DNA of 64,000 nt from Styela clava. Lineage: Eukaryota. The position numbers and the translations under genes were made by a program. Of the stretch, positions 31,603 through 41,592 are shown piece after piece. Below the pieces are notes generated by a model. It was not told the DNA's origin and did not search any database. It saw nothing but the letters and a program-made list of their open reading frames with translations. How positions within the stretch are numbered: the first letter of the stretch is position 1; every line of letters begins with the position of its first letter. The stretch lies in the NCBI RefSeq assembly GCF_964204865.1, contig NC_135255.1:18476001-18540000 (forward strand), written 5' to 3'.

Positions 31603-34600
31603 ATGTTTTTGAAGTGGATTCTTCTGTTAACAGGTAGGCAATAGCATGGCATGCATTTGAAATAGAAATCAATTTTTTCATGTTAAATACAGGGTGTCCA
31701 TGAAGTTTTAAATTTTTCGAAATTTCAATATGAGTTCATCGATACCATATATTGTTTTGGTTCTCACAGCTGTATTAAATGAAGTAAAAATACTTGAACA
31801 ATTACTGATTAAAAACAACAAAGCTAGTTTAGATATATTGAGAACTGACTTCATAACAAATTGAAATTGTAGAGTGACTTTATGGACACCATGGTATACT
31901 CGAAATAGTAGATAGATTTGTTCTCACAATAAGCATGGTACATATACATGACTATAGAAACAATACGTATTTTGAAAGTTCATTTTGGAATCAACGTGAA
32001 TACCATGTATGGGAAAATATTATAATGCGAAAACGGTGGAAATATATCTTCAAAGTTGTATGAATTTTGTTTTTTCCGACAAATTGGCTATGAATACAAT
32101 CGGTATTTGGCTTAACTTTAACGAAGCTGAATTTGCGATGGCGACATAATTTTTAATTTTTAGTAATTAAAATAAAGTATTAGATATGTTGTACAAAACC
32201 CCCGACAATAATGCAAATGTGAGACTTGAGAAAAACATCACTAACAGGCTAATTACTATTTTTCTTACTTCGAGCGTTGACGTTAGTTTTTATTTTATTG
32301 GGGCTTTGTACGAAAGATATAAAGTATTTAAAATAATAAAAGTTTTTACGCTTAAAACTTATCTCACTATTCTTCGATCATTAGATTGTATGTACTCTTT
32401 TACAGGTGCCATAATAAACGGAGTGTTTGCTAAAAAGTATGAAATCGACTTGTGCAAAAACCAAAGTCAAAGTTTAGGTTACAAGGGTAGAAATGAAAAA
32501 ACCGACGAATGGAAACTGACTGCAAATAAGTGCACTACCAGCAACAGCGTGATTTTGTTTCATTTTGTTCAGATGAACTTGAGACCATATTGGATTTGTC
32601 GAGGAAGTCTTAAAATATCAGGTATTATACTAATATTAATAAATTTTATACTTACCTAAAATGCCCGAATGTTCTTGAAGGCACAATTTGATATATTAAA
32701 TTAAGCCGCCCACTGCGTTACGCACGGTTCAGCGGAAACGTTTTGTGTATTCCAGAAATAATAATATGCCATGTCCAATTAGTATTCCTTACATACCAAG
32801 GACTTTTGTACAAAGCTTGGTTTGTAATGAAAAGTGCATATAGACACCATTTAAAATAGAAAATTGCTTTCAATTCATAACATGAATGCATAATGCATGT
32901 GTCGCACAGTGGTTCGCGATGGTTGACCGCGCTGTCAAAATATAAAATGTTCATTTCTTCCAAATATTGAATCGAACGAAACATTAAAACAAGCGTAATC
33001 CAGATTTTCGTTTCACCTTCCAGTATGTTTTTTATAGTCCTATTTCGTGAACATCGAGTTAGTTTTCAAATTGTACTTCAGCTTATCTTTCCGGCGCTGA
33101 ATTGTGTTCATATAACCATGGGCTATGTTTCCTTGTGACATCAAATAATGCAACTGCTGTCGACCCAACTATTATCAAGAGATGCAGATTAGCAACGCTA
33201 ATACGATCACAGGAGTTGTTGCCAATTACGGTCAATTTTACGAAAGATCGTACCGATTATGCTAGGGGATTCCAGCTGAATTACACGTTTGCTATGTCTT
33301 CCGATATTATTGAACGTAAGTGCGTTGATCATTATGTAAAAACTACTAGCTAATATCTCACAGCCCAAGCTTCAGCGTATGATTATAGGCCACTATCGTA
33401 AAGTTTGCTTATACATGCCATTAGGCGAAGACCATTTCTCGCACTCTCAATGACTGTATGACGTCAAATATTTGTATATGAAGAAATGTCTGTAAATAGC
33501 CAGCAATTGAAGTTATCCTAGACTAAATATATACCGTTTTCATGCCTTTGTGTCATTAGAATATAAGATAACCTAAGCAGCACCTATTAAGAGTTTTCAT
33601 TGAACTAAACAAATATCTCTGCGTTATGGTGCGGCAATATTACTGAACGCCTACAATCATGTTTCGACTGCCATTCAATTAAATACTTTTAATGCTATCT
33701 GCTCTCCACAAAAGTGAGCCAGACAAAGACCAAAGATTAATTCAACTTAATTAATGCTGTTTCAAATGTTTTCATATTTCACCACCATTCCCCATATAGG
33801 AACAAGCACAGTAAACGAGAAACAGGATGATTCTGGCGCTGTTGGAGCAGCAATTGCATTCGGAATAGTTTGTGGACTCCTATCAGCGATACTGATTGCT
33901 GTTGCGATAAGAAGGTATGTTTCCCCACTTAAGTGAAAAGCCCTGCAAATACAGCGAAGAAAACACCAAAAAATGCAAAAATCGCAATGAAGTTTTCAAT
34001 AACCTTGTGAAATTTTGCAAAAGTGTTGTAAATCTCGTCAAAAACCACCATAAACACTGGAAAAACGTGAAAAAGACACCTAAAGCCTTACAAAAACACT
34101 AAACAAACGTGAAAACCGTCAAAAAATGCCTAAAAACTTGAAAAAACGTGCTCGTCCCAATGAATTTATAAGTTGGATTTGCCTATATGAATTGAATGCG
34201 AGTCCTAATTCAGAATAGAATTTTAACGAGAAAAGACCTAATATGTATAAAACTGATTCCGCACACAACAAACGACGATGATTCCCGTTTATAAAATTCT
34301 TTCAACCTTTTTAGCTCTTTTTTAGAGATTCTAATGAATAACTTCCCAGTCTGATTTAGTTCAAATTAGCTAGACGATTATACATTAGACAAGATAGTGA
34401 CACCATTTTCGCAAAATTCTCGTCCTTCACGGCCCAGTACCTGTACCTAAGTATTAAACTTTCTTCTCCCTTTTTTTTACGTTTGCGAGCCGAAAAGTCG
34501 AATGATAATACGTCTGGACGTAATAATTTATTTTTATTCAATTTTTATTAGTTAAATAATATTAGCTTATTCATAAGCTATGGTCGCGGAGATAGATTTT

Positions 34601-34868
34601 CAATACGCAATACTATAATCCTATTAATAATATCTCTATCATACATGTCTTTATCACACGCATATCAATTTTCAGGTTCAGGAAGAAAGCAGTCGTTGAT
34701 GCCGGTGTTAACAACACAATGGTAACCTCGCCAGGTAACCAATACGAATCAACCATGCAGTGCGATGGGGAAATCAACCCTGACACGATTTACCACACTG
34801 TGGACAAACCAGATGAGGCAACTGAGAAAGAGACTGTTGTGAATCAGCTTTACACTATGGCTCCTTAG
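31603..34868 (+). CDS. Gene C: CUB-like/TM receptor with an ITSM-bearing tail (~262 aa); apparently intact
   Basis: Exons 31603-31633, 32406-32621, 33082-33315, 33800-33914, 34676-34868. Signal peptide MFLKWILLLTGAIINGVFA; CUB-type C-terminal strand RGFQLNY; TM AAIAFGIVCGLLSAILIAVAI; tail NQYES…DTIYHTV…TVVNQLYTMAP*. Confidence 0.9.
31690..31893. mobile_element. Tc1/mariner-type MITE (TIR cagggtgtccat); related copies at ~34918-35098 and ~51249-51455
   Basis: ta|cagggtgtccat … atggacacc(a/c)tg termini and shared internal sequence among the three copies. Confidence 0.7.
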
Positions 34869-35469
34869 TTTGCCACTTATCGATAAGTAGTAGTAGTTTT
34901 AACATCAGGTATATATACAGGGTGTCCATTCAGTCGCTTAAAAATTTAATTTTGGTATGAATTCAATTCTCAATATATTTTCACCAGGTTTGTTGTTTTT
35001 TAATCAGTTGTTTAAGCATTTTTACTCTATTCTGTAAGGACCAAAACAATATGTAGTATCGATGAATTTTATTTGCAATTTAATTTATGGACACCATATA
35101 TACATATACCCGTTTTTTTTCTTGTACCATATATGCAAATTCTTATTTCTTTCATTAGTTATGGGGGAAAAAACTAAATTAAACTATGTAACGCCAGCCC
35201 CGACGTTGAAAGTATTTGACTTCACATTTTTATTTTGTCGTGCATCCACTCATTGCCATCCTACTTCGTTTGAACAGAAAATTTACATAGTAATTGTTTA
35301 TTTTTCTTGTTCTTCATTTTTCTCCTTAACTTTTACCATTTTTAATGGATCAAATATTCAGTATCCGAAGATGGTTGCAGCCGCTAATTTTTGAGTCGTG
35401 AGTCCTGTGGTCCTGAGTTTAATTCAAAATTGTTTGTGTTTTTTTTTTTTGGAACATTTTTTATGAAAT

Positions 35470-39372: not shown

Positions 39373-39768
39373 TTACTTATCGATCTTAAGATCGGTAAGT
39401 ATATTGATAGGTATTTGTATGTATGTCTGTCTGTCTGTCTGTCTGTCTGTGTGTCTGTTAGATGCACGCGATATCTCACGAAAGCGGGATTGAATCTGCT
39501 CCAGATTTTGCATGTGCATTCATCTTATCTCGGACCAGAATCCTATTGATTTTGGGCGAATTATGTCGTATAATTAGCGAGTTATCAATCAATATAGTGA
39601 TCTAGATTTTTGTAAAGCGAGAGAATTTTGAAACCCGCCGAGTGTGTGTGTGCGATGCGCAGTGCGCAAGTTACAAGAGCGGATGAATCGAAACTGCAGT
39701 TTCTGTTTTGGGGGATTCCCTAACTATCGATCGATAAGTCTTCGGTTTCCAACCGATATTCTCGTTTT
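39373..39768 (+). mobile_element. DINE-1/HINE-like (Helentron-associated) element with (GTCT)n
   Basis: 5' hairpin ttacttatcgatc/gatcggtaagta, (gtct)n microsatellite, 3' gatcgataagtc followed by the stem-loop tcggtt-tcc-aaccga, T-rich flanks. Confidence 0.7.
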
Positions 39769-41592
39769 CTAGTTGACAAAACAATAAATCGCCCCCTCTC
39801 TCTCGCTGTTTTATGAGGAGCCAAACCTTCGCTTCGTGTAAGGTCCTAATCATCCATGTTTTAAAATGAATTTAGTTAAAAGAAAAGTGGGACGAACGGA
39901 ACCGTGTTTCCCTCTAATTAGAAATCATTTGAAATCGATTTTCCATTTTAGGTACGAAGAAAGAGACTTTTTTCGACAACTACAATCACCAACAAGAATA
40001 GTTTAGCAAAACGATCCTGCAGAATCTACACTTTGTGCCCAATAAGTCTTCTTCCACCTACTTTTTTAAGTACTCAATCTTTGAAATTGATTTTCCATTC
40101 GATGCTGGGAAAAAGAGACTTGATTCAACAACAACAATCACGCAAACAACAAGAAGAATTCAACAAAACGTTCCAGCAACATGTACACTTCGTGCACAAT
40201 AATATTAATGAATTTTAGATGAAAATGTAACAGTATTTTTGAAAACACGTGAGTATTATGACTTACCATGGATCGCGTCTTCCATACACGGTAAGTATTC
40301 GTAATCTATCTGAAATTTCCGAGGATACATCAATGCATAGAAATTAGGCGATGGTTTGAACTTTACAGTAAATGAATCAATTTCTTCATAGTTGTGGAAT
40401 CTTTGTGTACATTTCTGCGGCATTTTTATGTTTTCTAATTTTCGACATTTTTGATTGCTCCCGTGGAATATAAGACACGTGCCATTGGAAATCGTTGCAA
40501 TGTTTGTTCCTTGAAATAAGATAGTTTTTAATAAAACACAGTTAATAACTACGGGGATAAATCGGCTCAAATATTAGTACGGTAGGTGTTAAACGTGTAC
40601 TATGTAAGATCGTACTACCAAGAATGAATCATACGTTAGTTGGAAATCGAGTATAAATTTGATTTCTGCAACAAATTTTTTAGATATCACTGACGTTGGT
40701 TTTAGAAAATTCGCTTTTCTCAGCAACCAATGGACCAATTTCGGTATTTGACGACGGTCAAGTCTACTAAGAGGTAACTCTTTTTTTCAAATTTCTTTTC
40801 ACGAAAACACTTTGCTGTTTTATTATAAATAATAGGGAGCACTTTTTATTAGTCACGCCGGTATCGATGCGTGACCTACGCGTCCATTTATTCGATAATT
40901 CCCCTCTTTTTATATAAGAAAATAGGAAATGAGAGTAGTTGTTGTACAACTAGTTACCGTTAACGAATAAACTTCCAGCAAGATACGTGGTCTTAGATAT
41001 GAACATCATATTCATTGTACGAACAAACAAAACCAATGAAGAATTCTGGGAAAATTTGTGATGAGGAAGATTCCACGTTCTGCAGTTGCTTGACCGAAAC
41101 CTTTCTGGATAGTTTGGTGATTGAATGGACCCGTTTGTTGCTGTCATGCTTTCCATTATCGACGTGGACACGCTGATATAACGTTTTGGATCAACAACGC
41201 TGTGTGAATATAAAATGAAAAATGGTCAATTTTGTATTTCAATCCTTGACGATCTGAATATTACTAATTTATAATTATAATGGATAAAACAACTTGCTAA
41301 TATTCAAATTGATATATATAATGCAATGTTATTTATTGAATCTGTAACAAAACTGGCACTCCAGAAGTATGTGAAAGTAACTAATTTTGTTCGCCTACTT
41401 TACGTCGAGTTCTGTAAAGGGAATGAAGCCCATGGGCAGGGGCTATGTATTTATTTACCTGGCAAACACAGACAGTCCCCGAACTCGTAGTAGAACTAAA
41501 ATACAAAAAATCGGAATAAAATTATGGTCTAACCCTAATCTGGTACACATACTACGGAAGTATATGAAAAAATTTATTAACAAACTAAACTG

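Follow-up and report, generated by a model that had tools for sequence, protein, structure and literature searches.

CUB domains are usually conserved modules. Canonical examples (PF00431; TSG-6, 2wno; Kremen1, 5fws; neuropilin; MASP/C1s; spermadhesin, 1spp) share with a family of receptor-like genes in the sea squirt Styela clava a predicted beta-sandwich (97-110 residues, rmsd 2.5-3.6), and they also resemble its class II members in G-x-I-x-S-P and a cysteine before the Trp and its class I members in C3/C4. Unlike canonical CUBs, the family domain has about 135 residues, with an insertion probably held by a new cysteine pair, and has either relocated its first pair (class I) or lost the second and gained a further one (class II). 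The family also falls below the Pfam cut-off, gene C is without the calcium-site pattern, and a single domain sits on a stalk with a tyrosine tail.

Vertebrate CDCP1 is likewise a type I membrane protein with divergent CUB domains, and it ranked second among families in each of the two feature searches of the ESM Atlas (scores 0.88 and 0.85; a value below 0.9 is a lead only). CDCP1 has a tyrosine tail. In contrast to the S. clava proteins (262-276 aa with one domain in those checked, about 250-360 aa across the family), CDCP1 has about 835 aa and several CUB-type domains, and no sequence match to it was obtained.

The second CUB domain of ADAMTS13 is described, in the portion of the report available to us, as having no L5-L7 disulfide and no calcium site, with divergent odd loops (PMC8051872). 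It is thus a precedent for the loss of C3-C4, and a missing pair does not exclude a CUB fold. ADAMTS13 differs in being secreted, tandem and single-copy, and that portion describes no relocated or added pairs (PMC8051872). As far as the available parts of two reports go, FcoR of Botryllus schlosseri comprises ascidian single-pass receptors that lie in clusters on several chromosomes, evolve by birth and death with copy variation, and carry core Y-x-x-I/L/V motifs, with signalling motifs varying between alleles (PMC12065747, PMC12582321), features that the present family shares or, for copy variation and turnover by birth and death, may share. The FcoR ectodomain, as given in the available part of the former, is IgV-sushi-two C2 Ig in proteins of 520-610 aa encoded by genes paired with FF genes (PMC12065747), whereas the S. 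clava family has one CUB-like domain.

Gene content of the locus

The window analyzed here is 64,000 nt of S. clava contig NC_135255.1 (Table 1). It is part of a cluster of single-pass receptor-like genes, 23 of which were modelled on this contig and further ones elsewhere. The gene models share a signal peptide, a single predicted CUB-fold domain, a Ser/Thr stalk, a membrane helix and a tail with tyrosine motifs, and the ectodomain is a two-exon cassette between phase-1 introns. Six window genes were modelled, including three intact (A, C and G) and three broken (B, D and H). The family survey found tandem arrays on several contigs, plus pseudogenes. Read runs X1, X5, X6 and X7 are presumed to be RNA, and GT..AG joints in their contigs were taken as evidence for splicing. 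Every named family match was from S. clava, a listing that does not set the range of the family, and three long repeat proteins (P0012, P0015 and P0021) were discarded from the matches as spurious. None of the members carries a name, and standard domain scans overlook them. A literature search, with subscription papers and supplements outside its reach, found no paper describing the family.

Table 1. Positions of the family genes, exons and loops in the window (numbering from its first base)
Feature	Position	Strand	Evidence and remarks
A, intact class I, equals P0002	17471..20004	-	exons 19959-20004, 18920-19132, 18624-18857, 18181-18370, 17471-17642
B, class I, exon 3 frameshifted	23483..25280	+	exon 3 = 227 nt
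C exon 1, start of signal peptide	31603..31633	+	ATG..G/GT; N-terminus of P0006 matches; X6 contigs join exon-1-like end to exon 2
C exon 2, N-half of class I CUB-like domain; shifted Cys27 + Cys53, Cys75	32406..32621	+	AG..GT, phase 1-1, 216 nt; spliced to exon 3 in X5
C loop L5 (residues 68-76), hypervariable	32576..32602	+	DSSP of predicted model; L5 diversity 0.66-0.68 in A and G clades
C exon 3, C-half; Cys91, extra pair Cys98/Cys117 around insertion, RGFQLNY	33082..33315	+	AG..GT, 234 nt; X5 contig runs on into exon 4
C loop L9 (residues 138-143), most variable loop in class I clades	33246..33263	+	diversity 0.72-1.00 in three clades
C exon 4, short stalk + transmembrane helix, class II type	33800..33914	+	tree: with P0011 and J-N at 100/100; X7 contig joins it to D-type exon-3 end
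C exon 5, cytoplasmic tail with TIYHTV (ITSM-like) and NQLY	34676..34868	+	GT..AG joint in X5 and X7; motif scan
D tail exon, cut off before tyrosine motifs	38480..38570 (end approximate)	-	tblastn of P0010; translation
D exon 4, Thr/Ser stalk + transmembrane helix, class I type	38952..39153	-	TM+tail tree groups it with class I
D exon 3, without Cys4; four cysteines C5, Cx, C6, Cz	40267..40509	-	
D exon 2, class II N-half; canonical-type Cys1, GSIQSPNYP, CxxW, without Cys3	40958..41199	-	242 nt; frameshift between Cys1 and SPNYP; intact counterpart P0011
D exon 1 candidate (weak), G/H-exon-1-like	42155..42179	-	sole candidate in 41200-46500; alignment
Remnant F	47299..48667	+	transmembrane exon frameshifted; tail exon with stop
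G, intact class I, equals P0009	53569..55990	+	exon 4 from downstream acceptor at 55351
H, class I pseudogene	59305..61532	+	in-frame TAG 60435-60437; exon 4 frameshift, 194 nt; Arg replaces shifted Cys2

No RNA support was seen for the candidate first exon of D. Remnant F had been credited with a retained SLNFPE; stop codons lie on either side of this hexamer, which the exon-2 DNA profile misses and the exon-2 protein profile scores at 2.1 bits. The stretch once considered exon 2 of F was rejected as intron-like (it matches the first introns of A and a paralogue at 71-75% identity), and no ectodomain exons of F were found. The ectodomain segments quoted for G and H are exact, the absence of SPNYP from A, B, C, G and H was confirmed, and exon translations show RGFQLNY in C. 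The tails of G and H, described as nearly identical, share 80% identity as protein and 88% as DNA, and the introns of the two genes 81-82%. The two tails have diverged a third as much as the ectodomains, but intron 4 shows no greater similarity than the remaining introns; that homogenisation fully explains the tail likeness is only partly supported. H itself is likely a mosaic, with an I-like ectodomain and a G-like 3' part.

Predicted fold of the ectodomain

The original prediction of a remodelled CUB fold agrees with two predicted structures, those of C and of P0011 (an intact D-type protein), whose best matches are CUB domains. Ectodomain pLDDT was 88-96 for C and 70-94 for P0011. In the VIA structure comparison, the best Z was 10.1 for C (rmsd 3.5, 108 aligned) and 9.3 for P0011 (rmsd 2.5, 99 aligned); the top rows (21 for C, 23 for P0011) all read as CUB-containing proteins, and Foldseek concurs. 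The ectodomain is thus predicted to have a CUB fold. Searches by sequence did not help to identify the fold. Exon 2 of D stayed below the Pfam CUB threshold (E 0.016, 16 bits, threshold 21.4), and sub-threshold matches came from 0/16 class I exon 2s and 2/21 full proteins (best E 0.079); PDB profile searches returned chance or membrane-helix matches only; and a structure-based Atlas search with a poor model (pLDDT 0.50) named no family. Examined by sequence for the calcium-site pattern (calcium-binding acidic residues in L5 and L9; PMC8051872), C has no acidic residue in L5, and its two L9 aspartates are not conserved.

Cysteine pairs and proposed disulfide layout

Cysteines and loops were counted in an alignment of 33 ectodomains, and the pairwise presence and absence of cysteines supports the proposal of rewired disulfides. 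The extra exon-3 pair, C5/C6, is present in 33/33, as proposed. Cys3 and Cys4 are both present in 23, both absent from 10 and never found singly, and Cz was never seen without Cx. Both cysteines of the shifted pair occur in 23 ectodomains and one in a single case (the broken H), while the pair is missing from all nine with canonical C2. The post-Trp Cys2 is present as described, with Arg in H, but its spacing is W-x-L-x4-C rather than W-L-x4-C. In class I, Cys1 has moved as well, lying 17-24 residues before the Trp compared with 28-34 in class II; as a counterpoint, 8 of the 24 class I sequences still have a cysteine at 29-32 residues upstream of the Trp, close to where the signal peptide is predicted to end. 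C has only C3/C4 and D only C1/C2 of the canonical pairs, and P0016 alone (1/33) has the cysteines of both, together with two new pairs.

The canonical elements attributed to D are there, but its Cys1 is in another frame than GSIQSPNYP, and only the intact relative P0011 has them in frame; exon 2 has a length divisible by three in 22/23 other models. Cys3 and Cys4 are indeed absent from D, as had been noted and ascribed to compensated loss while the gene was functional. The joint absence is real but older than D, being common to J-N and P0011, and it also recurs in P2, P0017 and P0019.

From co-occurrence and strand order, the bridges in C would be Cys27-Cys53, Cys75-Cys91 and Cys98-Cys117, and those of class II C1-C2, C5-C6 and Cx-Cz. 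With these pairings, the first bridge of class I would leave the end with the odd loops for the one with the even loops, and class II would lose the L5-L7 bridge, either of which would free the odd loops, and the new bridges would staple an insertion of about 25 residues. One fold may offer a natural series of disulfide layouts, with four pairs in P0016, a first pair that has moved (class I) and a second pair lost repeatedly, as a testable case of bridge movement in a beta-sandwich.

Probable exchange of ectodomains between tail types

Ectodomain and TM+tail trees conflict for C and D, and grouping D exon 4 with class II was rejected (AU test, p 3e-5). C and D are likely reciprocal ectodomain/tail chimeras, with outer domains swapped between genes, which is new here. 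P0011, from another annotation, and one X7 contig each have a D-type ectodomain joined to a C-type membrane exon. The two-exon ectodomain cassette may have been exchanged between genes, so that different sensors would be coupled to the same type of tail. One inversion, mediated by inverted repeats in intron 3 of each of C and D, was considered as an explanation, but a search found neither such a repeat nor shared intron homology.

We consider it extremely improbable that faulty assembly or annotation of a repetitive region produced the chimerism and the broken copies, although the window does contain a 200-N gap, with exact 5,755-bp repeats nearby, and the breaks in B, D and H are read from the assembly sequence. 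P0011 is an automatic model, and the D-to-C-type joint comes from one low-depth contig whose exon 4 differs from that of C at 14/118 bases, so this contig may be a paralogue rather than an allele. Nevertheless, X7 and P0011 give the D-type plus C-type combination independently, X5 shows C exon 3 continuing into C exon 4, and X1 contigs have 0 differences to the reference across C intron 3 (33277-33898) and intron 4. Run X1 yielded the reference C exons and two further, unphased versions at 85-90% identity; no copy of these two was found in the assembly. An X6 contig differs from C in six residues around Cys75; across 33218-33269, 14 substitutions and 3 inserted bases separate an X6 contig from C, and four of the changes in its L9 tract are synonymous, which fits tract exchange. 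The swap between ectodomain and tail could be typed by PCR.

Loop variation and possible selection

Diversifying selection on one binding face had been proposed. Variation is loop-focused in class I, but per-exon and site-model support is mixed. Variable sites cluster in the odd-numbered loops, relative to the even-numbered ones, in 3/3 class I clades (p 0.0001-0.0025; same outcome with strict borders and with gaps counted or ignored) but in 0/2 class II sets (p 0.27 and 0.25). The expected excess of ectodomain over TM+tail ω was not borne out for G-H (0.42 and 0.39, p 0.81) or A-B (0.83 vs 0.47, p 0.21, not significant). The A clade gave 0.59 vs 0.63 (p 0.75) and the K clade an ectodomain value no higher than TM+tail, while the ectodomain was higher for H-I (0.60 vs 0.13, p 0.002) and for the G clade (three genes including the broken H; 0.52 vs 0.23, p 0.018). 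Whole-ectodomain ω was 0.42-0.83, and it did not reach 1 in the C6 clades. For the A and G clades, pS varies little between regions (0.31-0.40), leaving a general mutation hotspot over the odd loops unsupported, while pN is doubled in odd loops (0.37-0.42 vs 0.16-0.20).

Site models placed 5-9% of sites at ω>1. M1a vs M2a was significant for the A clade (p 7e-5), its gap-free exon-3 subset (p 1.5e-5) and the gap-free contig-C1 cluster (p 1.5e-6 and 1.5e-7), and not for the gap-free exon-2 subset (p 0.25) or TM+tail (2dL 0). Recombination among paralogues can inflate such tests, and the fast sites of the contig-C1 cluster map to L3/beta4 and the last strand, outside L5 and L9.

The fold and cysteine changes could be real and the loop variation still reflect relaxed constraint in a redundant tandem family, without selection for new binding specificities. 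Odd-loop pN/pS is near 1 (about 1.07-1.09, with intervals that include 1; 0.74 in the P7 clade), a fast neutral class fits about equally in 2/4 sets (p 0.91 and 0.23) and is rejected in the other two only at p 0.03, and the A-clade signal vanishes once indel-adjacent codons are masked (p 0.93 and 0.57). Half of the modelled window genes are broken, and in ordinary CUBs the odd loops are likewise the most divergent part, according to the available portion of PMC8051872. We nonetheless regard relaxed constraint as unlikely. The domain appears maintained, given pN/pS of 0.28-0.66 in strands and even loops; ω>1 classes persist in gap-free sets; L9 has four codons, set between conserved flanks, at which all five gap-free members differ; and aromatic residues make up 20% of odd loops vs 9% of even loops. 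Taken together, positive selection on the ectodomain is only partly supported.

Proposed receptor role and implications

Our preferred reading, with a probability of roughly 0.58, is that these single-pass proteins act as fast-evolving recognition receptors, signalling via their tail tyrosines. Varied ligands would bind loops L3/L5/L7/L9 at the predicted membrane-distal end; in other CUBs the odd loops form the end that meets the ligand, according to the available portion of PMC8051872. A motif scan found a core YxxI/V in 18/18 tails. Taking the consensus ITIM as [SIVL]-x-Y-x-x-[ILV] and ITSM as T-x-Y-x-x-[IV], a strict ITIM occurs in 1/18 (the broken B) and an ITSM in 1/18 (C), and N-x-L-Y occurs in 10/18.

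A function in innate immunity or self/non-self recognition, together with birth-and-death turnover, may be envisaged by analogy, and the likely ectodomain swaps, together with the loop-clustered differences, suggest a fast-changing recognition system such as immunity. Spermadhesin CUB proteins have a role in gamete- or adhesion-type recognition. Diversified recognition of that kind, for gametes, adhesion or environmental cues instead of immunity, seems highly unlikely to us: spermadhesins are among the fold matches, and the tails mostly miss strict ITIMs and often carry N-x-L-Y, but the family's arrangement in tandem arrays across several contigs, its pseudogenes, its copy variation and its swapped tails recall the Botryllus FF/FcoR clusters as described in the available parts of PMC12065747 and PMC12582321.

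Beyond the preferred reading of recognition receptors, we tentatively raise a broader possibility: that styelid sea squirts recruited CUB as a variable recognition scaffold at >55 loci, with distal loops diversified under selection, disulfides rewired to free the loops, and ectodomain cassettes swapped between tail types across haplotypes, so that the wiring from sensor to signal, in immune or self/non-self recognition, would be individual to every animal. If this is true, CUB would stand beside IgV, C-type lectin or LRR domains as a scaffold. Should the family be immune, it would add an extra scaffold to the diversified germline receptors of vertebrates' closest invertebrate relatives and would provide recognition candidates in a solitary, invasive ascidian.

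Predicted CUB fold and probable disulfide rearrangement

Sequence evidence for a CUB domain is weak. AlphaFold2 models built from 21-sequence alignments were confident across the ectodomain, and in VIA-align the model of gene C aligned best with the TSG-6 CUB domain (Z 10.1, rmsd 3.5, 108 residues) and that of P0011, a database protein with an intact D-type ectodomain, with Kremen1 (Z 9.3, rmsd 2.5, 99 residues). Judging from titles and known domain content, the top 21 rows for C and the top 23 for P0011 are presumably all CUB-containing proteins. Foldseek gave the same CUB result, and ESM Atlas features pointed, at lead level only, to CUB proteins and CDCP1. 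The remodelled CUB fold proposed in the original prediction is well supported by the predicted structures.

The cysteines were surveyed in 33 aligned ectodomains. The extra C5/C6 pair is found in 33/33, and the canonical C3/C4 cysteines occur together in 23, are both missing in 10 and never occur singly; the ten ectodomains without them occupy four separate places in the tree (class II, P0017, P0019 and P2). N-terminal cysteines were called C1 or shifted according to class, with spacing as a check, and K-M offer two candidates. Class I ectodomains (the A, B, C, G and H type; n=24) have one Cys 17-24 residues ahead of the beta4 Trp position and another 7 residues beyond it, the latter missing only in the broken H. 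Members of class II (the D, J-N and P0011 type) together with P0016 and P0017 (n=9) have one Cys 28-34 residues and another 2-3 residues before the Trp, and the post-Trp Cys is present in 0/9. These nine and P0014 share a further pair, Cx/Cz, and Cx is found without Cz in four A-clade members; P0016 combines both canonical pairs with both new pairs. This paired presence and absence argues well for the rewired disulfides that had been claimed. Reading the model's order of strands against the CUB loop numbering in the available text of PMC8051872, we infer that the odd-loop end carries the canonical bridges and that the relocated one would join L2 and L4, at the opposite end.

P2 (P0003), an open gene of the A clade, has neither Cys3 nor Cys4 and has also lost the conserved Trp of beta4; it is the cleanest recent case of joint cysteine loss. 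Unpaired extra cysteines, which could form covalent dimers, are found in P4, P11, P12 and P2 (Cx without Cz) and in G (CC).

Variation and probable selection within the ectodomain

Variability in odd loops exceeds that in even loops in three clades (A, G and P7), whichever of two border definitions is applied (p 0.0001-0.0025, with columns treated as independent); D/P0011 and K-N lack this excess. In the A and G clades it is non-synonymous, with a pN/pS of ~1.1 in odd loops versus 0.44-0.66 elsewhere. Among the changes listed, versions of gene C in run X6 differ chiefly at the L5 end and around L9, and 7/8 codon changes within the membrane exon of the X7 version are synonymous. The G and H segments previously singled out as variable map to L3 and L5. 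Clustering of variation at one end of the domain is supported for class I, with selection as its likely cause.

By counting methods, ω was 0.56 in the ectodomain versus 0.38 in the TM+tail for G-H, and 0.76 versus 0.32 for A-B. Likelihood estimates from our own codon-model code erased most of this contrast (G-H, 0.42 versus 0.39, p 0.81; A-B, 0.83 versus 0.47, p 0.21), and the per-exon difference anticipated for these pairs did not hold up. Since B and H look broken in the assembly, each of these comparisons sets an intact gene against a broken one. Likelihood ω was 0.56 versus 0.26 for G-I (p 0.07), 0.60 versus 0.13 for H-I (p 0.002), 0.52 versus 0.23 in the G clade (p 0.018), 0.59 versus 0.63 in the A clade (p 0.75) and 0.47 versus 0.72 in the K clade (p 0.31). 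H is nearer to I in its ectodomain and nearer to G from the membrane exon onward, which suggests that it is likely a mosaic gene.

Site models favoured M2a over M1a significantly in the seven A-clade genes that have an open ectodomain (p 7e-5), pointing to sites in L5 and L9, and in a set of five exon 3s lacking gaps (p 1.5e-5), pointing to sites in L9. Significance was lost once indel flanks were masked in the A clade, and neither exon 2s without gaps nor the G or K clade reached it; the P7 clade was marginal (p 0.045), and the TM+tail set gave no signal. Gap-free exons of the contig C1 array gave p 1.5e-6 (19/20 sequences, the one with a stop being left out) and 1.5e-7 (23 sequences), the fast sites falling in L3/beta4 and on the final strand; its first half-exon was not significant. 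Once a fast ω=1 class was allowed, ω>1 was needed in only two of four sets (p 0.029 and 0.035) and was unneeded in the remaining two. Of the diversifying selection proposed for one face, the single variable end stands for class I, and positive selection is partly supported.

Ectodomain and tail combinations

A different annotation lists P0011 and P0025 under the locus number of gene C; in both, an intact ectodomain of D type is followed by a membrane exon and tail of C type, and exon 1 of P0011 is also C-like. In one contig of X7, a run guessed to be RNA, the end of a D-type exon 3 is connected to a C-type exon 4. In the ectodomain tree D clusters with P0011 and J-N (100/99), and C falls in class I. 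In the TM+tail tree the positions are exchanged, C clustering with P0011 and J-N (100/100) and D falling in class I, and an AU test on the TM+tail rejected constraining D to class II (p 3e-5). C and D lie on opposite strands, facing one another. Run X1 contains the reference version of gene C exons and two versions at 85-90%; each of the other forms could be an allele or an additional paralogue.

The introns flanking the D ectodomain cassette carry direct duplications (~125 and ~160 bp, 75-77% identical). P7 and P8, a separate ectodomain clade with a G-type tail, represent a possible further ectodomain/tail shuffle.

Gene structure and family size

Each exon model, built from splice signals, begins with a short signal exon, followed by two exons for the ectodomain (phase 1-1), one for the stalk and membrane segment and one for the tail. 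For gene C (P0006, an uncharacterised protein), the exon 2-3 and exon 4-5 joints are GT..AG in contigs of runs guessed to be RNA; in such runs, exon 3 continues into exon-4 letters in an X5 contig and an exon-1-like end precedes exon 2 in an X6 contig. Three of the window's 6 modelled genes (A, C and G) are open. In the assembly sequence, B has a broken exon 3 of 227 nt; D combines an exon 2 of 242 nt with a truncated tail and only a weak candidate for exon 1; and H carries an in-frame TAG and an exon-4 frameshift. F is a remnant whose membrane and tail exons are both broken; the stretch taken for its exon 2 is similar to intron 1 of A, does not match the exon-2 profile and was rejected. The F region shares with intron 1 of A and of P12 a noncoding segment (71-75% conserved) that is possibly regulatory. 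Exact tandem repeats of 5,755 bp, each with a G-like exon-2 remnant, adjoin a 200-N gap and reflect either recent duplication or an assembly artefact. No ectodomain exons were found near one partnerless set of membrane and tail exons (terminus VVNELYTM).

Features of the family and their coordinates
Feature	Sequence	Position	Strand
Exact tandem repeats	window	1-15300	
200-N gap	window	13157-13356	
G-like exon-2 remnants	window	~2456-2638; ~8211-8393	-
Segment in intron 1 of A	window	19390-19467	-
Same segment, F region	window	44672-44782	+
Same segment, P12	L018	~3683-3792	-
Membrane + tail exons without partner	window	29410-30790	-
Direct duplications around D cassette	window	39923-40202; 42274-43090	
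CC in G	window	54420	
P2 / P0003	L033	530-1020	-
P4, P11, P12, P2 (Cx without Cz)	L037, L017/L018, L033		
P7, P8	L006 to L007; L013	L006:7677 to L007:1190	
P10	L017	670-1580	
P14	L020	2326-2969	
C1 array	L041-L060	G000:C1:27.755-27.955 Mb	

The window occupies G000:C6:18476001-18540000 in a 377 Mb genome. Profile searches yielded 24 ectodomain models, 23 from 444 kb of C6 and 1 from 20 kb of C3, besides fragments. Protein searches of the genome detected further arrays, with 23 copies of one exon within 220 kb on C1 and about seven on C19, as well as isolated loci on C3, C5, C6, C10 and C16. The family total of more than 55 loci is a lower bound. In the C1 array, the CUB domain is divided among three exons and several tandem ectodomain cassettes precede one membrane/tail unit, a layout that could yield multi-CUB, alternative-cassette or secreted forms. 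Secreted forms may also exist elsewhere, as no membrane exon was found for P14 or P10, and the annotated P14 protein, of 184 aa, likewise lacks one. Searching 1.84 billion database representatives with a profile gave 23 matches; those with a name are all from S. clava, and three of the 23, long repeat proteins, were discarded. Our literature searches turned up no description of the family.

Cytoplasmic tails and likeness to Botryllus receptors

The core YxxI/V is present in 18/18 tails examined and an N-x-L/I-Y terminus in 10/18; a strict ITIM and an ITSM each occur in 1/18. In the available text of PMC12065747 and PMC12582321, Botryllus FcoRs evolve by birth and death and have the same core tyrosine motif as the Styela tails, whereas their ectodomains are Ig/sushi, unlike those of the Styela family. 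By analogy, this family may have an immune role.
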